A stretch of DNA of 64,000 bases, taken from contig CACZEK010000004.1 of NCBI GenBank assembly GCA_902780135.1, positions 7,146 through 71,145 of the forward strand, in the 5' to 3' direction. The position numbers and the translations under genes are program-made. Below, one piece after another: positions 16,342-59,064 of the stretch (position 1 is the stretch's first letter; the number at the start of each line of letters is the position of its first letter). This DNA comes from an uncultured bacterium (GTDB lineage Bacteria; Verrucomicrobiota; Lentisphaeria; Victivallales; UBA1829). Below the pieces are notes generated by a model. The model saw only the letters and a list, made by a program, of their open reading frames with translations, was not told the origin of the DNA and did no database searches.

Positions 16342-16366
16342 ACACATTTGCTTTTGGGTGCTTTTG

Positions 16367-18499
16367 ATGAAATATTACCTCGGGATCGATATCGGGTCCA
16401 CGACATTCAAGGCCGTCGTCATCACCGACAAGGGGCGCGTGGTGCATACGACCTACCAGCGCACGAAGCCCGTCGAATCCGGACAGCTTTCCTGCTCGGG
16501 CCGCTGCAATTCCTGCGGCCGCTGCAACATGGGCGCGCTGAAAAAGACTTTGGCGACGTTCTTCTCCGAAGCCGGAATCGACGCCGGCGGGCTCGTCGGC
16601 GATGCCGCGCGGGACGCGTCCGGGAATATTTCCACGGGGGACATCGCCTGCACGGTCGTGACGGGCAGCCAGATCGTGGAGGACACGAAGCGCTTCATCC
16701 CGTACGATTTCCAGGTCAGCGAAGTCTCCGCGCATGTGGCCGGGGCGAAACGCTACTATCCGAATGTCGACGCGATCATCGACTGCGGCGGGCAGGACAG
16801 CAAGTGCATGGTGTTCAACCACAAAATGGGCATGTGGGTGTCCATGATGTCCGGCGTGTGCGCCGCGGGCACGGGCAGCTACCTCGACAGCGTCGCCGCC
16901 AAGCTCGGCATCCCGGTCGAGGAAATGGCGGACAAGGTGAACTACGACGCGAAGACCGAGTTCAGCTCCGTCTGCGCCGTGCTCTCCGCCACGTCCATCA
17001 ACAAGTTCAAAAACCGCATCCCGATGGGCGACCTGCTCGCCGGGGCATGCCGGGCGCAGGCGCGCACGATCCTGAACGGCGTCGGGCAGATGCTGATGCA
17101 CCACGACCCGTCGCACCCGATCCTGTTCCAGGGCGGCGTGGCGTCGAACCATGCCGTGGCGTACTTCATGAAGGAGATCACCGGGTGCGAGATCATCATC
17201 CCGGAATTCCACAACGTGATGGGCGCGCTCGGCGCGGCGGTCCTCGCGCTCGAATACAGCAAGCTGCGCGGCAAGCTCGACCCGGACCCCGTCCAGTACG
17301 AGCCCACGCGCCAGAAATCCGTCGCCATGCGCGTGGTCGGCAACAAACGCACCTTCCTCTTCGGGGAAAAGGACAAGCCGACCGTCTGGCGCAACCTCTT
17401 CTTCCCGACCGAGATCCTGAACGCGTTCGGCGCGCGGATCCTGACGCTGGAAACGTACGCCGCGCTCTTCGGACGCAGCACGAAGCGCGTGAAAGCCGCG
17501 CTCGACACCGCGGCGCGCAGGGGATTCGACCAGCAGACCTGCTCCTTCCTGCGCATGCTGGAGGGGCTGCCGCTGAAGACGCCGGATTTCGCCGTCTCCA
17601 CCAGCCAGCCGTGCCAGCAGGGCGAACGCATCTTCGCCGACCTCGCGCGCACCTACGGCTTCGAGGACCGTTTCTTCTCGCTCCAGACGCCGATCAGCAT
17701 CATGAACACCAACGCGGTCGGGCAGATCGCCGACGGCCTGCGCCAGTCCGTGGAGCGGATGGAGGAGGCGTTCGGCCGCAAGCTCGATCCGGCGCGCCTG
17801 GAGGAGGCGTGCGTGCTGTCCAATATCGCGACGGACTACTCGCGCAAATGCAACGAACTGCGCTGGACCTCGCCGCCGCTGATCCGCGGGTCGCAGGCGG
17901 TGTACAACGCGGTCATCTTCAGCCAGCTCTGGGGCACGCAGGAGCTCGTCGACATCCAGAAGACCTACTACGAGGAGCTGCTCCAGAAGAAGGAATGGGC
18001 GGAAAAACGCTATTCCATCGACGACACCCACCGCCTGCTCTGGCTCCATCTGCCGCCGTTCTACGACTCCAAGCACCTCGACTATATCGAGACCGTCTGC
18101 AACGCGCCGATCGTGTTCGAGGAGACCAATTTCGTCGGCTGGGGACCGCTCGACCCGAAGCACCCGTACGAATCGCTCGCCCGGAAGCTCCTCACGACCG
18201 GATTCCTGGACCCGAAACTCCGCGTGAAGTACGTGAAGGACATTTCGGCGAAGGCGAAGTTCACCGGCTGCATCCTGTACACGCACGGGTTCGGACGGTG
18301 CAGCCTCGCAGACCGTCCGTTCACGAAGCTTCTCCGCGAGGAGCTCGAGGAGGTCGGCCTGCCGATGCTGGCGCTCGAGGGCGACTGCATGGACGCCTCC
18401 ATCGACCCGTGCTCCACCACAACCAAGATCGCGTCGTTCGTCGAGTCCCTGAACCTGAAGAAATACGGCAATCTCTTCGGACGCATGAAGAACGCCTGA
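16367..18499 (+). CDS. Fusion protein: BadF/BadG/BcrA/BcrD-type (HgdC-like) activase ATPase + 2-hydroxyacyl-CoA dehydratase D-component-like domain
   Basis: N-terminus MKYYLGIDIGSTTFKAVV..IIDCGGQDSK..VCAAGTGSYLD..FQGGVASN (ASKHA-fold activase). The C-terminal ~400 aa resemble HgdB/YjiM-type subunits (FFPTEILNAFGA..). Extra motif CSGRCNSCGRC. The ORF could begin 3 codons earlier, at 16358. Confidence 0.8.
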   Translation: MKYYLGIDIGSTTFKAVVITDKGRVVHTTYQRTKPVESGQLSCSGRCNSCGRCNMGALKKTLATFFSEAGIDAGGLVGDAARDASGNISTGDIACTVVTGSQIVEDTKRFIPYDFQVSEVSAHVAGAKRYYPNVDAIIDCGGQDSKCMVFNHKMGMWVSMMSGVCAAGTGSYLDSVAAKLGIPVEEMADKVNYDAKTEFSSVCAVLSATSINKFKNRIPMGDLLAGACRAQARTILNGVGQMLMHHDPSHPILFQGGVASNHAVAYFMKEITGCEIIIPEFHNVMGALGAAVLALEYSKLRGKLDPDPVQYEPTRQKSVAMRVVGNKRTFLFGEKDKPTVWRNLFFPTEILNAFGARILTLETYAALFGRSTKRVKAALDTAARRGFDQQTCSFLRMLEGLPLKTPDFAVSTSQPCQQGERIFADLARTYGFEDRFFSLQTPISIMNTNAVGQIADGLRQSVERMEEAFGRKLDPARLEEACVLSNIATDYSRKCNELRWTSPPLIRGSQAVYNAVIFSQLWGTQELVDIQKTYYEELLQKKEWAEKRYSIDDTHRLLWLHLPPFYDSKHLDYIETVCNAPIVFEETNFVGWGPLDPKHPYESLARKLLTTGFLDPKLRVKYVKDISAKAKFTGCILYTHGFGRCSLADRPFTKLLREELEEVGLPMLALEGDCMDASIDPCSTTTKIASFVESLNLKKYGNLFGRMKNA

Positions 18500-47310: not shown

Positions 47311-47679
47311 ATGGAGGACTGGTTCGACATGCGGGTGGACCCCGCGCAGATCGCGAAGGAACGGGCGAAGGCGCGCGAACTCCGCCGCACCAACTGGTGG
47401 CAGGCGCAGATTCAGAAAGGCGTCTGCCATTACTGCGGCAGGAAATTCCCCCCGTCCGAGCTGACCATGGACCACGTCGTGCCGCTTTCGCGCGGCGGAC
47501 GCAGCACGAAAGGCAACATCGTGCCCTGCTGCAAGGAATGCAACAACGGCAAGAAATACACCATGCCCGTCGACGAGATCCTCGCCGAACTCGACCGCGA
47601 AGACCGCGAGCGCGAGGCCGCGCGGGACGCCGCGGACACGGATGCCGGATCGCCGGACGACTCTTCGCGGGACGTCTGA
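47311..47679 (+). CDS. Small HNH endonuclease-domain protein
   Basis: CHYCGRKF..TMDHVVPLSRGG..GNIVPCCKECNNGK (HNH with CxxC..CxxC Zn site). Acidic tail. Confidence 0.85.
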   Translation: MEDWFDMRVDPAQIAKERAKARELRRTNWWQAQIQKGVCHYCGRKFPPSELTMDHVVPLSRGGRSTKGNIVPCCKECNNGKKYTMPVDEILAELDREDREREAARDAADTDAGSPDDSSRDV

Positions 47680-53688: not shown

Positions 53689-55893
53689 TCAGAAGATGGT
53701 TTCGGGGACGGAGACGGTGGAGGTGACGTCGATCTTTTCGATGTAGTACCAGTCCTGGCTGGGGAGGTAGTTCACGCAGTAGATGATGCGGCGTCCGTTC
53801 TCCACGCGGGAGATCGTGCCGTATTTGGTCTCGGTGAACCGGCGGAAGAGATCCTCGTCGTCGAAGCGGATGGTGAGGGTGTCCTCCTTGTTCGTCTCCA
53901 TGGCTCCCGCGAATCTTGCTCCGGTGGAGAGCAGGATGAGGCCGGAGTCGTCCAGCAGGGTCTTCTCCAGGACGTTGTTTCCCGTGTTGCCGTGGGTGTT
54001 CAGGTCGCGGATGATCGTGTTCAGGTGCAGGTCGAATCCGGCGACGCCGAGGAAGTTGCCTGCGGTGTCCAGCATGGGGACGTTGCAGGAGAGCAGATAG
54101 CCCGCAGCGGCGGTGTTGCCGGGGTAGGGCTTGCTCCAGGCGAATTCGCCGCTGCTGGACTGGGCGGTCTTGTACCAGTGGCGGCCGCGCGGGTCGTAGC
54201 TCGACGCATAGGCGCCGCTGCCGGGATAGACGATGTACTGGCCGTCCGGGAAACCGAAGAGCAGCAGATGGAGGGGGATCCCCGTGAGGCGGAGATATTC
54301 GTTCTGTTCGGCGGCGGATGCGTTCCTGATGTCGTCGGGGAGGCGTTCGTGGAAGACGTCCATGATCGGTTCCCGCAGATGCGCGAGGACGTGCAGGCGG
54401 CGTTTTTCGGCGTCGGTGAGATCGTCGCCGTGGATGGTCTTGTGCGCGAAATGGGAGAAATCGATCTTGCGGTGGTATATGGAGGAATAGAGCAGCGAGG
54501 GGGGCGCGTTCTTCGAGTCGTCGCGGAGCGCGGAGACCGGCATCATGCAGTCCGGAGCGGTTTCCGTGCCGTCCGGGTCCGTCTCGCAGAGGAAGACGAA
54601 CTCCGAGGTGATGGCGGAGAGGAACTGTGCGTTGCGGGCGATGTTCGTTTCGATGTAGTCCGCGCACGCGGTGGACTGGACCTGCGCGACGGCGAGACCG
54701 TTGACGTATGCGTGCACGGAATTGATCTGGCGGACGCGGCGGTAGCAGGTCACGCCGATCGTGAGGAGGAGCGTGAGGATGCTTGCGACGGCGAACGCCA
54801 GGGAGGCGCGCTTGTGGTGCACGGCGAACGAAGCCATGCGCCCGAAGAGTCGGTACGGGTTCGCGCTGGTCTCCTCGCCGCCCATGTAGCGGCGGATGTC
54901 GGAGGCGAGTTCGCGGACGGTCTGATAGCGTTCGCTGCGGCTGTACGCGGTTGCCTTCGCGATGATCGCCTTCAGGTCGGGATCGATCTTGAACCCGTAT
55001 TTGTGGCGGGTTTCGGCGATGCGTCCTTCCCGGATCATGGAGACGACTTCGGCGCTGGTGCGCGCCATGTATGCTTCGCGGAGGGTGACGACCTCGAAGA
55101 GGATGAGCCCGAGCGCGTAGATGTCGGCGCGCTGGTCGGTGTGTTCGCCGTGAACGGCTTCGGGCGACAGGAATCTCGGCGTGCCGGAGATGGTGCTCGG
55201 TTTCACCCAGGTGGCGGGGTCGTATCCCGGCTCCTCGATCTGGCGCGCGATGCCCCAGTCCATGATGTAGGTCTCGCGGAATTCGCCGATGAGGATGTTT
55301 TCGGGCTTGAGGTCGCAGTGCATGATGTTGCGGCTGTGCGCGTAGTCGAGGGCGTCGCAGACGCGGAGCATGATCTCGAGACGGTACATCAGGGACTTGC
55401 GTTCGTCGAAGTGCCCGATGCCGGACGTGCGGTACTCGTGGTCGAGCTGTTCCAGATAGCTTTTCAGCGTCTTGCCGTCGACGAGCTTCATCACGAGGTG
55501 GAGCCCGTCCTTGTCGTCCGTGTTCAGCGAGTAGATCGGGATGATCGCGGGGTGGCTGAGCTGGGCGGTGACGCGCGCCTCCTGGATGAACTGGCCGCGC
55601 GCGGACTGGTCGTCCTGCTGCGGCTTGAGCGTCTTGATCGCCACGAGGCGGCGGAGGTTCAGGTCCATCCCCTCGCGGATGACGCCCTGTCCGCCCTCGG
55701 CGAAGACTTTGCCCTGCCGGTATTCCGCGTTGATGTCCTCCAGTTTCACGTCCAGTTTGTCGTCGAAGCGGACGTCGGAGCGGTCCACGTGCGTAAACGT
55801 GACCGAGGTGTCCTGCTCGCGGTTGAGGTTCTTCAAGCCGACCGAGATCGAGGTCACGGTCTGGACTTTGCCGGATGTCGCGCCTCGGTTCAT
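53689..55893 (-). CDS. Membrane Ser/Thr protein kinase (catalytic motifs intact) with extracytoplasmic Cache-like domain
   Basis: AEGGQGVI, VAIKTL, FIQEARV, MHCDLKPENILIG, MDWGIA, LSPEAV. TM ASLAFAVASILTLLLTIGV. Ectodomain with YDPRGRHWYKTA..W..PY..GVAGFDL (dCache hallmark). Its ATG overlaps the upstream gene's stop (ATGA). Confidence 0.9.
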   Translation of the reverse strand: MNRGATSGKVQTVTSISVGLKNLNREQDTSVTFTHVDRSDVRFDDKLDVKLEDINAEYRQGKVFAEGGQGVIREGMDLNLRRLVAIKTLKPQQDDQSARGQFIQEARVTAQLSHPAIIPIYSLNTDDKDGLHLVMKLVDGKTLKSYLEQLDHEYRTSGIGHFDERKSLMYRLEIMLRVCDALDYAHSRNIMHCDLKPENILIGEFRETYIMDWGIARQIEEPGYDPATWVKPSTISGTPRFLSPEAVHGEHTDQRADIYALGLILFEVVTLREAYMARTSAEVVSMIREGRIAETRHKYGFKIDPDLKAIIAKATAYSRSERYQTVRELASDIRRYMGGEETSANPYRLFGRMASFAVHHKRASLAFAVASILTLLLTIGVTCYRRVRQINSVHAYVNGLAVAQVQSTACADYIETNIARNAQFLSAITSEFVFLCETDPDGTETAPDCMMPVSALRDDSKNAPPSLLYSSIYHRKIDFSHFAHKTIHGDDLTDAEKRRLHVLAHLREPIMDVFHERLPDDIRNASAAEQNEYLRLTGIPLHLLLFGFPDGQYIVYPGSGAYASSYDPRGRHWYKTAQSSSGEFAWSKPYPGNTAAAGYLLSCNVPMLDTAGNFLGVAGFDLHLNTIIRDLNTHGNTGNNVLEKTLLDDSGLILLSTGARFAGAMETNKEDTLTIRFDDEDLFRRFTETKYGTISRVENGRRIIYCVNYLPSQDWYYIEKIDVTSTVSVPETIF

Positions 55894-58379
55894 CGCAGAT
55901 TGCCTTTCTGTTCCGTTTTGATGCTCCGCAGGAAATCCTTCAGCCGGATCTTTTCCACATACCATTCATCCATGGCGGGGACGTCCGCGAAGCAGTAGAC
56001 GAACTGGCCGTCGGGTTCCTTGCGGATGACGGATCCGTATTCCTTCCCGGCGACCCAGTCCCGCAGCCAGGGATCGGGATACAAGCCCTTTTCCAGGTTG
56101 ACCGTAGGAGCCTTTCCGGGACCGTTGTTGATGCGTTCCAGCTTGACGTGGCCGTTTCTCGCGATGAAATACTGCGAGACCATGCCGAGCGGGGAGTTGT
56201 TGGCTTCGCTCAGGATCTGGTCGAAATAGCGGCCGGAGACCAGGATCGCGGCAACGCCGAGCGGGGCGTCCGGCGGCCCCAGCGGGATCGAAACGGGCAG
56301 GATCACGCGTTCCGCCCCGGGGACGGCATTGTCCAGCCGTGCGGGAAGATGCCATGCGGCGGAAGCCACCCGGGAAGCCATGGTCTCGCGGTACCATTCG
56401 CTTTTGTGAAAATCGGGGCCGTCTTTGCTCGTGTACGGATAGAGCAGGGTCGAACCGTCGGCAAGCAGGATCTGGACGCGGTAGATGGGGCTGACGCTCT
56501 GGGTGAGACGGTGGATCTGCCTGTCGGGGCTTTCCTTGGTGATGTAGGCGTTCAGGGGCGCCTGCAGCATGTAGCGGAAAAGCGTGGGCTGGAGCAGGCC
56601 GAGGCGGGTGACTTCAGGATTGGAGATGTCCTCTTCGTGGCCGACTTCCACATTGCGGAAGCTGACGGAGTCGCCGTAGTAGGGGGAGTATTCGGTCTGG
56701 ATCCCGACGCTGCCGTCGACCAGCGCTTCGCTCGGCTGCACCAGATACTTTGTGCCGTGTTTGTTTTCCTCTGTGCGTTCGGAGAGCAGGAATTCGGTCT
56801 CGAATTTGATGGATTCGAGCATGTCGTTGATCTTTTCCGCCTGGAGGTTGAACTGATGGGCGGTTTTCCGGCATGAGGACTGCGCTTTGCCGAGCACATG
56901 GTCGTCGAGGTAGGATATCTGCGCCATGCGGACGTCGTTGAAGATGTTGTAGGCGAAGAGCGCGCCGACCAGGCAGATCAGCGTCAGGAACCAGAAGAAC
57001 ATGCGCCGGTGGTGCGCCCGGATAAGCTTCGCGAAGCGTTTCGAGAGGCTGATCCTGCGCACGGAGACTTCATCGGAGTGCAGGAACCGCCGGATGTCCT
57101 CGGCAAAGTCCTTCACGGTCGGATAGCGGTTCTCCGGATCGGACGCGATCGCCTTCTGGATGATCGCCTTCATGTCCGGGTCGATGGCTCCGCCGAAACG
57201 GTGCTCGATCGTGGGCTGGACGCCGTTGCGGAGGCGCTCCAGGATTTCCGGGGCGGTGGCGTCCGGGAACGGCGGATGGAGGGTGACGAGTTCGTAGAGG
57301 ATCATGCCGAGGGCGTAGACGTCGGACCGGACGGACGGTTCGGCGCCGGAGATGAGTTCGGGCGCGATGAACCGCGGATCGGTTATCTCGGGCGGCTTGC
57401 GCTTCTGCGCGGCGTCGTCCTGCGCGGTGATGGGCCGGGAGAAGCCCCAGCCCTTGATGTAGACCTCGTGGTATTCGCCGATCAGGATGTTCTGGGGATT
57501 CAGGTTTGCGTGCGCGATGTTCCGGCTGTGGGCGTAGACGAGCCCGTCCGAGACGCCGAGGATGAGTTCGAGGCGGAAGCTCAGGGACCCGGCTTCCTCC
57601 GCCGCGCGGAATCCCGCGTTGCGGTAATGCGAGGTGATCCTTTCCAGGTATTTGCGGAGATCGGTGCCGTCGGTCAGTTTCACGGCGGAATGCAGTCCGC
57701 CGCGGTAATCGCGGTTGATGCTGTAGACGGGCAGGACGGACGGATGGTCGAGCTGCGCCGAGATCTCCGCCTCGGCGATGAAGCTGGCGCGTTCATCCTC
57801 GTCCATGAGCTTTTCGTCGCGCAGGGAATAGATCGCCACCTTGCGCTCAAGTCCGAGGTCTTCGCCGATGGAGACCACGTACCGCCCGCCCTCGGCGAGC
57901 CTGCGTTCGATCTCGAACCGGTCTTCGACGTCGGTCAGGTGCGCGTGGGATTCATCCAGGTGCCCGACCTTGGCGCGTTCCCTGTGGTGGTCCTGTCCGT
58001 CGATCTTTGCTCCGACGTCCTCTTTGCCCGTGCCGGTCAGCGCGGACAGGATCGACGCCGGATTGTGCAGGATGCCGTGGAGGCGCGTGCGCGTGTCGCC
58101 GAACAGCGTCTGCGTGTCGTCCGGCGCGGCGCGCGTGACGCCGTTTTCCGCGTTCAGGACGATGGTCCGGTCGACCTGCGCCGTGTCCATTTTCATGGTC
58201 CGGTCGACCTGCGCCGTGTCCATTTTCATGGTCCGGTCGACCTGCGCCGTGTCCATTTTCATGGTCCGGTCGGGAAGCGGCGCGGACGGTTCGGACGGCG
58301 CGGACGGGGCGACGCCGGACGTGCTGCCGGAAGAGGTCCCGGCAGTTCCGTCTGTGTTGTGATTGAGTTCGTCCGCCAC
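55890..58379 (-). CDS. Paralogous membrane pseudokinase (kinase fold, catalytic residues substituted) with Cache-like ectodomain; GTG start uncertain
   Basis: Aligned to its neighbour: VAIYSL (Lys to Tyr), AHANLNPQNILIG (Asp to Asn, Lys to Asn), IKGWGFS (Asp to Gly). IAPEL is kept. TM MFFWFLTLICLVGALFAY. Ectodomain with HKSEWYRETM. The N-terminus is S/T/P-rich, then 3x DRTMKMDTAQV. Confidence 0.85.
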   Translation of the reverse strand: MADELNHNTDGTAGTSSGSTSGVAPSAPSEPSAPLPDRTMKMDTAQVDRTMKMDTAQVDRTMKMDTAQVDRTIVLNAENGVTRAAPDDTQTLFGDTRTRLHGILHNPASILSALTGTGKEDVGAKIDGQDHHRERAKVGHLDESHAHLTDVEDRFEIERRLAEGGRYVVSIGEDLGLERKVAIYSLRDEKLMDEDERASFIAEAEISAQLDHPSVLPVYSINRDYRGGLHSAVKLTDGTDLRKYLERITSHYRNAGFRAAEEAGSLSFRLELILGVSDGLVYAHSRNIAHANLNPQNILIGEYHEVYIKGWGFSRPITAQDDAAQKRKPPEITDPRFIAPELISGAEPSVRSDVYALGMILYELVTLHPPFPDATAPEILERLRNGVQPTIEHRFGGAIDPDMKAIIQKAIASDPENRYPTVKDFAEDIRRFLHSDEVSVRRISLSKRFAKLIRAHHRRMFFWFLTLICLVGALFAYNIFNDVRMAQISYLDDHVLGKAQSSCRKTAHQFNLQAEKINDMLESIKFETEFLLSERTEENKHGTKYLVQPSEALVDGSVGIQTEYSPYYGDSVSFRNVEVGHEEDISNPEVTRLGLLQPTLFRYMLQAPLNAYITKESPDRQIHRLTQSVSPIYRVQILLADGSTLLYPYTSKDGPDFHKSEWYRETMASRVASAAWHLPARLDNAVPGAERVILPVSIPLGPPDAPLGVAAILVSGRYFDQILSEANNSPLGMVSQYFIARNGHVKLERINNGPGKAPTVNLEKGLYPDPWLRDWVAGKEYGSVIRKEPDGQFVYCFADVPAMDEWYVEKIRLKDFLRSIKTEQKGNLR
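58164..58272. repeat. 3.3 perfect tandem copies of a 33-bp unit inside the pseudokinase N-terminus
   Basis: GGTCCGGTCGACCTGCGCCGTGTCCATTTTCAT at 58164, 58197 and 58230, with a partial copy at 58263. In frame at 11 codons per unit. Confidence 0.95.
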
Positions 58380-58404: not shown

Positions 58405-59064
58405 TTATTTCGGGAATCCGACTGCCTGCGCGAGGATGACGGTCATCTTGCCGTCGAGCTTGAAGACCTTGCGGACGCCATTTTCATCGTACATGCCGAG
58501 GGAGACGGTGCCGAGTCCCTTCGAGGCGCAGTAGAGGTAGACGTCCTGCGAGGCTTCGCCGACGTGGATCGCGGGGTACTTGATGTCGTTCGGGAATTTG
58601 GTGGAATCGCTGGCGTAGACGAGGATCGCGGCGGCGTTTTTCGCCATGTTCTTGTTCATGATGAGCTCGGCGCGGAAATCGCCCGCGTCGATGCGCACGA
58701 GCTTGTTCGCCTTCGCGTCGTAGTGGTATGCGGCGCCCGGCAGAGCCACGTAGACTTCGAGGTCCTGCCTGTTCATCGCGGTCGGGATCGTGCGCTTGCC
58801 GTCGGGACGGTTCACGCCGTTGGCGGCGTAGAGGATTTCGGAGAGGGTGGCGGCGTCGAGTTCGCCGGGCTTGTAGTCGCGGACCGTCTTGCGTTCCGCG
58901 AGCGCCTGCATGAGCGGCATGCCGCCGGTCTTCGCGGGCGCGGGGAGGGCGACCGATTCGGCAGCCGGGTCGATCTTCGCGGAAGCGGCGGCGTCCTGCG
59001 CGGGGATGGAGAATGAGGCGAAAAGCGCGAGCGAGGCGGAGGCGAGAATAGCGAGATGTTTCAT
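58405..59064 (-). CDS. Nitroreductase-family (FMN) protein with N-terminal signal peptide
   Basis: MKHLAILASASLALFASFSIPAQD, then LMQALAERKTVRDY..LSEILYAANGVNR..GEASQDVYLYCASKGLGTV (nitroreductase fold pattern). Confidence 0.75.
   Translation of the reverse strand: MKHLAILASASLALFASFSIPAQDAAASAKIDPAAESVALPAPAKTGGMPLMQALAERKTVRDYKPGELDAATLSEILYAANGVNRPDGKRTIPTAMNRQDLEVYVALPGAAYHYDAKANKLVRIDAGDFRAELIMNKNMAKNAAAILVYASDSTKFPNDIKYPAIHVGEASQDVYLYCASKGLGTVSLGMYDENGVRKVFKLDGKMTVILAQAVGFPK

Follow-up and report, generated by a model that had tools for sequence, protein, structure and literature searches.

A predicted receptor pseudokinase and a paralogous candidate amino-acid-sensing Ser/Thr kinase are encoded by overlapping genes in uncultured Victivallales bacteria

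Why would a bacterium maintain a gene for a receptor kinase that has lost its catalytic residues, and keep it overlapping the gene of a paralogue that has them all? This question is raised by a 64,000-nucleotide stretch of DNA, hereafter the window, taken from contig CACZEK010000004.1 (positions 7,146 to 71,145; GenBank assembly GCA_902780135.1) of an uncultured bacterium of the Victivallales lineage UBA1829. The open reading frame (ORF) list of the window contains two adjacent genes on the minus strand, named here psk (55890–58379; GTG start, 829 aa) and kin (53689–55893; 734 aa counted from the ATG at 55893). The first is predicted to encode a receptor pseudokinase and the second an active Hanks-type receptor Ser/Thr kinase. 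On balance, we judge it probable, though by no means certain, that the two proteins are subunits of one amino-acid receptor kinase that arose by tandem duplication followed by complementary loss. The evidence lies in the catalytic sites, the linkage of the two genes, the ligand pockets and the distribution of a Thr-rich N-terminal tail.

The two proteins share one layout. From the N-terminus, psk comprises a disordered tail, a dead kinase fold, a single transmembrane (TM) helix (aa ~458–480; 56940–57008, minus strand, by hydropathy) and a degenerate dCache ectodomain, and kin comprises a short tail without Thr motifs, a kinase domain, a single TM helix (aa ~361–385; 54739–54813, minus strand, by hydropathy) and a dCache_1AA ectodomain. 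The paralogy extends over 708 aa, aligned from the kinase domain to the C-terminus, with 32% identity (E = 2e-94). A first-pass annotation of this DNA had described two paralogues, each with a kinase fold, one TM helix and a dCache domain, and the Pkinase matches, the hydropathy and the sequence identity all agree with that description. It had also placed an ATGA stop/start overlap at 55890–55893 (minus strand), which is visible in the junction sequence (...ctgcgATGAaccg...; ctgcgATGAacc): these 4 nt contain the TGA of psk and the ATG of kin. A Shine-Dalgarno-like AGAAAGG is located within the 3' end of psk at 55903–55909 (minus strand), and at the other end of the gene an MxDEL start is common to psk orthologues. 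An overlap of this kind between stop and start would favour the making of both proteins together.

Catalytic residues were assigned through phmmer alignments to the sequences of PknB crystal structures. The pseudokinase domain of psk (aa ~151–440; 57060–57929, minus strand) matched the PknB structures at E = 3.5e-28 and the catalytic domain of kin (aa ~56–345; 54859–55728, minus strand) at E = 2.4e-37; Pfam Pkinase (PF00069) scored 89.8 bits for psk and 141.1 bits for kin, both above the gathering cut-off of 31.7, in keeping with the kinase fold assigned to each protein in the first-pass annotation. kin is canonical at every site, with VAIK, the alphaC Glu (FIQEAR), HCDLKPEN, MDWG and GTPRFLSPE (LSPE), and the KEDKND signature was present in every kin orthologue whose sequence spans those positions. 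Judged by its Pkinase score and its complete set of catalytic residues, kin is predicted to be an active Hanks-type Ser/Thr kinase. In psk, VAIY, HANLNPQN and KGWG stand opposite VAVK, HRDVKPAN and MDFG of PknB: the beta3 Lys is replaced by Tyr184, the HRD Asp by Asn292, the catalytic-loop Lys by Asn294 and the DFG Asp by Gly310. psk still has the alphaC Glu203 (FIAEAE), the catalytic-loop Asn297, the APE motif (IAPE) and, in the PknB alignment, a full-length activation segment (aa 310–341), and AlphaFold2 (AF2) gave a predicted local distance difference test score (pLDDT) above 90 over its kinase fold (aa 150–440). The alignment thus bears out the view that the upstream protein lacks all three catalytic residues and keeps FIAEAE and APE, and that the downstream protein has every catalytic motif, SPE included. 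The replacements recur among psk orthologues: 91 sequences have VA[IVL]Y, 91 have KGWG, a single one has RGWG, and all but two have H-x-N; the catalytic-loop Lys position drifts among H, N, L, Q, T and V.

Four further psk lineages, described below, are also catalytically dead, with R, S or H at the Lys position and G, N or S at the DFG position. Some of their features, and some of those in the rumen clade to which the window belongs, would fit a non-canonical enzyme that performs WNK-like phosphotransfer through a basic residue of the glycine-rich loop, or chemistry of the SelO/SidJ type: a basic residue occurs in or beside this loop in four of the five lineages whose loop was read (GGRY, QGKH, RGKR and THRD), the alphaC Glu203 is kept, and so is the catalytic-loop Asn297 in the rumen clade. 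We nevertheless consider such an enzyme very improbable. The catalytic Asp and the metal-binding DFG Asp are absent in every lineage; the basic loop residue is off the WNK position and its place shifts between lineages; and the replacing residues differ from lineage to lineage, including Y, R, S or H at the Lys position, a variation that fits relaxed selection at a dead active site and not re-engineering. A Lys or Asp that might rescue catalysis in the WNK manner was looked for in the psk N-lobe, and no invariant compensating residue of either kind was found there across lineages. The aligned residues, with the purifying selection described below, support the assignment of psk as a true pseudokinase under selection.

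Whether the pair is an accident of one genome can be judged from its conservation. A search of 5.8 billion protein clusters returned ~90 clusters of psk orthologues at 59–99% identity, after which identity falls steeply to 30%. For kin, 63 clusters of orthologues were found at 71–100%, of which the 60 full-length ones are at least 77% identical; the wider kinase-dCache family gave 1585 matches at E ≤ 1e-20 among 8000 candidates scored. The psk gene was found in 12 GTDB species genomes, all of them rumen metagenome-assembled genomes, labelled either Lentisphaeria or Victivallales or as uncultured RUG isolates. Thirteen rumen-clade loci were analysed, namely the window, 2 metagenome loci and 10 genome loci. 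A full-length kin orthologue directly follows psk in all 12 that are long enough for both genes; the contig of the thirteenth, L016, ends within kin. The junction could be read in all 13 and is ATGA in 12 and TGATG in one, and a GAAAGGAGG-like Shine-Dalgarno sequence lies 8–13 nt upstream of the kin start, inside psk. When loci from outside the rumen are included, the two genes are adjacent and overlapping in every locus of sufficient length to show both, in four lineages with context.

The ratio of non-synonymous to synonymous substitution rates (dN/dS), calculated by the Nei-Gojobori method (NG86) over 66 genome pairs, was 0.45 for psk and 0.23 for kin in the N-terminal tail, 0.23 and 0.11 in the kinase fold, 0.22 and 0.24 in the juxtamembrane/TM segment, and 0.33 and 0.26 in the ectodomain. 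Every domain is therefore under purifying selection, and psk is relaxed about two-fold yet clearly constrained. The faster evolution of its kinase domain (0.23 versus 0.11) and its lower identity between genomes (60–75%, against 81–87% for kin) are what a decaying, functionless duplicate would also display. We regard decay as barely credible, however, given that the reading frame is intact in ~90 orthologue clusters and in five lineages, that dN/dS is well below 1 in every domain, that the Tyr184 and Gly310 replacements are invariant, and that the overlap junction is conserved; the fixed substitutions, the dN/dS values and the pair synteny led us to reject it. The first-pass annotation had named a pair found nowhere else as the sign of such a duplicate; the pair is conserved, at a psk dN/dS of 0.22–0.45. 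These results support the conclusion that gene linkage ties psk to an active Hanks kinase built on the same plan.

What the pair might sense can be read from the ectodomains. The amino-acid (AA) motif defines the dCache_1AA amino-acid sensors and is found in Ser/Thr kinases, one of which, from Enhygromyxa salina, has had its ectodomain validated by calorimetry (Gumerov et al. 2022, PMC8915833). The kin ectodomain (53692–54738, minus strand) scored 52.2 bits against Pfam dCache_1, above the cut-off of 45, and aligned with the ligand-binding domain of PctA (phmmer E = 2.6e-9) at all motif residues: Y566, R571, W573, Y574, Y590 and D621 (nt 54031–54198, minus strand; pattern Y-x4-R-x-W-Y...Y...D) are in register with PctA Y121, R126, W128, Y129, Y144 and D173. 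Among 64 kin orthologue sequences, 62 have YRWYYD and the remaining two are fragments without an ectodomain, and the motif was intact in nearly all of 61 distant kinase homologues. By this motif, kin would belong to the described class of dCache_1AA amino-acid-sensing Ser/Thr kinases, an assignment that the first-pass annotation had missed.

The psk ectodomain (aa 481–829; 55893–56939, minus strand) has the fold without the motif. It scored 31.6 bits for dCache_1, below the cut-off, so the dCache assignment of the first-pass annotation holds at the profile level for kin only. A sequence comparison with the PDB returned no match for it, and the fold was therefore confirmed through AF2 (pLDDT 90.5 from a 75-sequence alignment) and Foldseek, whose top matches were all dCache_1 ligand-binding domains (PctA/B/C, Mlp24, Tlp3 and CtaA; probability 1.0). 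At the motif psk reads K-S-E-W-Y, with Ser660 at the Arg126 position and Leu at the Asp173 position, and it retains Trp662 and usually Tyr663 of the old pocket. Its orthologues have S, T, A or I at the Arg position and Leu at the Asp position, and vary at the positions of Y121 and Y144. The former pocket (aa 641–680) is the most variable part of the folded protein (entropy 1.3–1.9 bits), and the equivalent stretch is the most conserved part of the kin ectodomain. The R/K-x-WY hallmark reported earlier for both ectodomains consequently stands for kin, as R-x-W-Y in PctA register, and falls for psk, and the proposal of two different ligand-binding ectodomains is not supported, given the loss of the psk AA residues and the hypervariability of its pocket.

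That proposal would make psk a co-receptor: its ectodomain would bind a ligand other than that of kin, and the pair would integrate the two signals. The confidently predicted dCache fold, the purifying selection on the psk ectodomain (dN/dS 0.33) and the retention of Trp662 and usually Tyr663 are consistent with it. Yet the residues that would hold the carboxyl and amino groups are gone, their replacements differ among orthologues (S/T/A/I at Arg), and the hypervariable psk pocket, set against the conserved one of kin, makes a second, conserved psk ligand unlikely. We therefore consider a co-receptor improbable, and favour a pair in which ligand sensing rests with kin.

The same division appears outside the rumen clade, which the pair predates. 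kin homologues at 43–50% identity came from other lineages with GC contents of 42–59% and different flanking genes, and each had an overlapping psk-like gene ahead of it. At locus L022, psk-like P0240 (VSIR / HCSLNPYR / AGWG) overlaps kin P0185 by 1 nt; at L025, P0241 (VAMS / HGNLSSRR / AGWS) overlaps a truncated kin with canonical motifs by 8 nt; and at L026, an 804-aa psk-like protein (VLAIH / HGNLNPES / NWG) overlaps kin P0187 by 4 nt. Four more distant homologues that were checked, at no more than 41% identity (P0195, P0224, P0191 and P0092), stand alone and unpaired. When 1.84 billion cluster representatives were searched exhaustively with a HMMER profile, ~105 single-domain family members were among the best 150 matches, and 99 of them had canonical KEDKND. 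The only five members without the Lys and both Asp were the five best matches, namely the rumen clade, P0240, P0241, P0353 and P0354, and all five had also lost the AA motif. The psk family is thus small and coherent, with five representatives at 50% identity. In neighbour-joining (NJ) bootstraps, psk was monophyletic in 200 of 200 replicates and the paired kinases in 195 of 200.

Two observations on this wider family may be added. A gene with SIS and CBS domains (a KpsF/GutQ-like sugar-phosphate isomerase) lies directly upstream of the pair in L022 (2480–3460), L025 (5996–6985) and L026 (587–1570), and the unpaired P0224 is likewise downstream of a KpsF-like SIS-CBS gene (L024, 4996–5979). 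The common position of P0224 and the three pairs after this gene suggests duplication in place, and the adjacency may go back to one ancestral locus or may point to a role connected with envelope sugar metabolism. Separately, the 745-aa protein P0094 has a single catalytic replacement, at the HRD Asp (HNALKPEN). It retains the Lys and the DFG Asp, though with LLDWT instead of MDWG at the DFG stretch, as well as an intact AA motif, and may have gone part of the way to a pseudokinase independently.

If psk neither catalyses nor senses, what does it contribute? Its N-terminal extension of ~150 aa, predicted with pLDDT below 50 at residues 1–27 and 29–119, carries four copies of a [PV]-D-R-T-[MI]-[KV]-[ML] motif at 11-residue spacing: a motif scan identified PDRTMKMD three times and then VDRTIVL (Thr39, Thr50, Thr61 and Thr72; 58149–58274, minus strand). 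Three of the four are encoded by a perfect tandem repeat of 33 nt in the psk coding region, with 3.4 copies at 100% match and DRTMKMDTAQV as its unit, which was detected by Tandem Repeats Finder at 58162–58272 (minus strand). In the motif scan, the motif occurs 3.15 times per 100 aa in the N-terminal tail and 0.07 times elsewhere. Family members carry 1 to 6 copies, usually 3–4, a variation that suggests gain and loss of repeat units through slippage or gene conversion.

The distribution of the motif follows the pairing of the genes. Counted with the pattern [DE][RKP]-T-[ILMV]-[RKV]-[ILM] (in short, [DE][RK]-T-phi-x-phi), it was found in 90 of 90 psk-family members, distant lineages included (P0353 has four copies), in none of 65 paired kinases and in 42 of 52 other kinase-dCache homologues. 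Of the four kinases verified as unpaired, three have it and P0195 has the near-variant ERTIPL. Single-gene relatives therefore carry the tail, an active kinase and an amino-acid pocket on one chain; in the pair the tail is on psk only, and the catalytic residues and the pocket are on kin only. Such a distribution reads as complementary loss after duplication, and it is the strongest argument that psk and kin work as one unit. The first-pass annotation had missed that the tail is partitioned to psk alone.

The tails of homologues are of interest in their own right. P0211 has ERTVRM four times, P0197 has DKTLVM and DKTIVM, P0220 has DRTVVL twice, and many others contain [FY]EPT[IVLM]R[IM][DE]R. 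Across a large family of dCache-linked Ser/Thr kinases, a Thr motif precedes a KRRDV-x3-I-like element, and this N-terminal element may serve as a general autophosphorylation or docking module. A description of it was not found in the literature examined, and the [DE][RK]-T-phi-x-phi tail is suggested to be a general, undescribed signalling element of that family.

Constraint within the two proteins was compared by positional entropy. In psk, conservation is highest over alphaC-beta4-beta5 of the N-lobe (aa 201–240; 0.19–0.28 bits) and the juxtamembrane/TM/stalk helix (aa 441–520; 0.34–0.56 bits), and the activation loop is variable. kin is the opposite: its activation loop and catalytic core are conserved and its TM/stalk varies. 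Both proteins conserve the Leu that corresponds to PknB Leu33, which makes a contact in the back-to-back N-lobe dimer. At the position of PknB Arg10, which forms a salt bridge in that dimer, psk has an invariant Arg (Arg154, ~57918–57920, minus strand) and 61 of 69 paired kin sequences have Glu (Glu57, ~55723–55725, minus strand), and other homologues vary. The Arg/Glu pair may reflect charge complementarity across a heterodimer interface, a suggestive point at most.

A conserved N-lobe would serve an inhibitor as well as an activator. psk could be a negative regulator or decoy that pairs with kin, or competes with kin homodimerisation, and so keeps kin inactive; its Thr motifs would then be pseudosubstrates or a phosphate sink and not docking sites. 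The conserved N-lobe, the obligate linkage and the loss of both catalysis and ligand binding fit this role equally, and a ligand-blind, catalytically dead partner has the appearance of a dominant-negative subunit. A pure inhibitor, however, leaves unexplained why kin lost a tail whose motif is kept in 42 of 52 other homologues, three of the four verified unpaired ones among them, and multiplied in psk, and the tail is conserved in all five psk lineages. Negative regulation is accordingly a reading that we rate as unlikely, and the two-subunit receptor remains the one that we prefer.

The two-subunit receptor would have arisen as follows. A single-gene ancestor with an N-terminal Thr-motif tail, an active kinase, a TM helix and an amino-acid-binding dCache domain would have been duplicated in tandem. 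kin would have kept ligand sensing and catalysis and dropped the Thr-motif tail. psk, having dropped catalysis and the ligand pocket, would have retained the disordered tail and multiplied its motifs to 3–5, and also kept the conserved N-lobe and the juxtamembrane/TM/stalk segment. The two proteins would assemble in the membrane, and an extracytoplasmic amino acid bound by the dCache_1AA domain of kin would activate kin, which would trans-phosphorylate psk at the Thr motifs of its tail. Once phosphorylated at several sites, the tail could recruit phospho-Thr readers, such as FHA-domain proteins; the hydrophobic +3 residue of the Thr motif may fit the preferences both of mycobacterial kinases for their substrates and of FHA domains. 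The pseudokinase domain might act as an allosteric partner of kin through an N-lobe dimer interface of the PknB type. Heterodimerisation, trans-phosphorylation, allostery and the identity of the output are steps that we infer.

Several observations weigh against this scheme. Of the other family members, only four were verified as unpaired. The grouping of psk as sister to the paired kinases was recovered in 3 of 200 NJ bootstraps; the long psk branch makes long-branch attraction a likely reason, the tree was not relied on, and it gives no proof that duplication was the origin of the pair. The stalk and TM segment is highly conserved in psk and among the most variable parts of kin, an asymmetry that a symmetric stalk-to-stalk heterodimer would not predict. 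Pfam scans of ~40 window genes and the annotated flanks of related loci revealed no FHA-domain or PP2C gene.

The surroundings of the pair were also examined. A nitroreductase-family gene (58405–59064, minus strand; PF00881, 64.3 bits) lies 25 nt upstream of psk and is probably co-transcribed with it. Its product has a signal-peptide-like N-terminus (MKHLAILASASLALFASFSIPAQD...), although a flavin nitroreductase would not usually be exported. Its conservation upstream of the pair is limited to the rumen clade (synteny of L001–L005), and it is absent from the L022, L025 and L026 contexts. The conserved block of the rumen clade comprises RNase R (divergent), panB, the nitroreductase gene, psk and kin, and the genes downstream of kin vary; in the window, an RND pump with a MarR gene is convergent on kin. 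The rest of the window is housekeeping, with genes for PheS, ThrRS, ArgRS, IleRS, TrpRS, L20, S2, IF3 and EF-Ts, and it also encodes trigger factor, ClpPX, RF, LepA, PFOR and NifU/NifS. A promoter and terminator scan around the operon gave nothing above shuffle expectation. No Rfam family reached its gathering score in a scan of 1–64000, and no L20 leader, T-box or similar element was detected, in a window dense in ribosomal-protein and aminoacyl-tRNA synthetase genes. Two further ORFs were noted on the plus strand: a 713-aa ORF (16358–18499) that fuses a BcrAD/BadFG-type activator ATPase domain to a 2-hydroxyglutaryl-CoA dehydratase D-component domain, and a stand-alone HNH endonuclease gene (47311–47679; 122 aa) between a UbiA-family prenyltransferase gene and the RND efflux operon.

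How does the pair compare with what has been described? Each part is known, namely amino-acid-sensing kinases and bacterial pseudokinases, and the pairing is what appears to be new. kin resembles the dCache_1AA Ser/Thr kinases in its Pkinase-TM-dCache_1 order and full AA motif; those kinases are described as single proteins (PMC8915833), whereas kin is always coupled to a degenerate paralogue and is without the N-terminal Thr motif that most single-gene relatives carry. A full-text literature search combining pseudokinase and Cache domain yielded nothing relevant, and a description of such a pairing was not found. Bacterial pseudokinases are almost uncharacterised according to a 2025 review (PMC12599244), in which Cache domains and Lentisphaerae go unmentioned and no receptor pair of kinase and pseudokinase is described. 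The review catalogues seven families: ActPs1–3, GLW, CP1, DYD and DLHK. psk has Y, R, S or H at beta3, H-x-N for HRD and G/N/S-W-G for DFG. In the descriptions given there (PMC12599244), GLW has GLW for HRD and poly-Leu for the beta3 Lys, where psk has HANLNPQN and VAIY; ActPs3 is an actinobacterial family with a deletion in the activation loop, where psk has a full-length segment and a Lentisphaeria/Victivallales host; CP1 has a COG3899 domain and no TM segment, where psk has a TM helix and a dCache domain; DLHK retains the HRD Asp and has no TM segment, where psk has a TM helix and is without both Asp; and DYD and DLHK keep canonical HRD and/or DFG, where psk has neither Asp. By motif, architecture or taxon, these descriptions set psk apart from GLW, ActPs3, CP1, DYD and DLHK.

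The catalogued families come without an obvious cognate kinase. For psk, gene order, overlap and complementary loss name the partner, and the probable input (amino acids, through a validated motif) and probable phospho-acceptor sites are named as well, which defines a reconstitution question. If the two-subunit reading is true, the pair would add a new architecture to bacterial Ser/Thr signalling, and psk would be the first bacterial pseudokinase to have its cognate kinase identified directly from the order of the genes; the pair would also be a clean natural case of subfunctionalisation of a single-pass receptor. Its scope is bounded: the hosts comprise uncultured bacteria of the rumen and others that are Victivallales-like, psk forms a small family, and every mechanistic step is one that we infer.

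The closest bacterial precedent is the MviN pseudokinase (ActPs3) of M. tuberculosis, which is membrane-anchored, has all three catalytic motifs degraded and has a conserved N-lobe dimer interface; PknB phosphorylates it on a tail Thr, and MviN then recruits the FHA protein FhaA (PMC12599244). MviN is fused to a flippase, is not a paralogue of PknB, is not encoded beside it, has an activation-loop deletion and is actinobacterial (PMC12599244). psk and kin, by contrast, are tandem paralogues of the same receptor layout, and the psk tail is N-terminal and repeated and only presumed to be phosphorylated. The closest comparison overall is with HER2/HER3 (ErbB2/ErbB3) and other eukaryotic receptor pairs of pseudokinase and kinase, and by analogy only: a single-pass receptor pseudokinase is joined to a paralogous active kinase, and the dead partner supplies the phospho-acceptor docking tail and can activate allosterically. 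We tentatively propose, at somewhat less than an even chance, that psk and kin are a bacterial counterpart of HER2/HER3, an obligate two-subunit receptor split into a sensing-catalytic subunit and a doubly dead subunit that provides the docking tail and allostery. The origins would be independent, the ectodomain is bacterial and the acceptor would be Ser/Thr and not Tyr. The division of labour also differs, for HER2/HER3 has its ligand-binding site on the pseudokinase and an active kinase that is ligand-blind, and in psk and kin these roles would be reversed.

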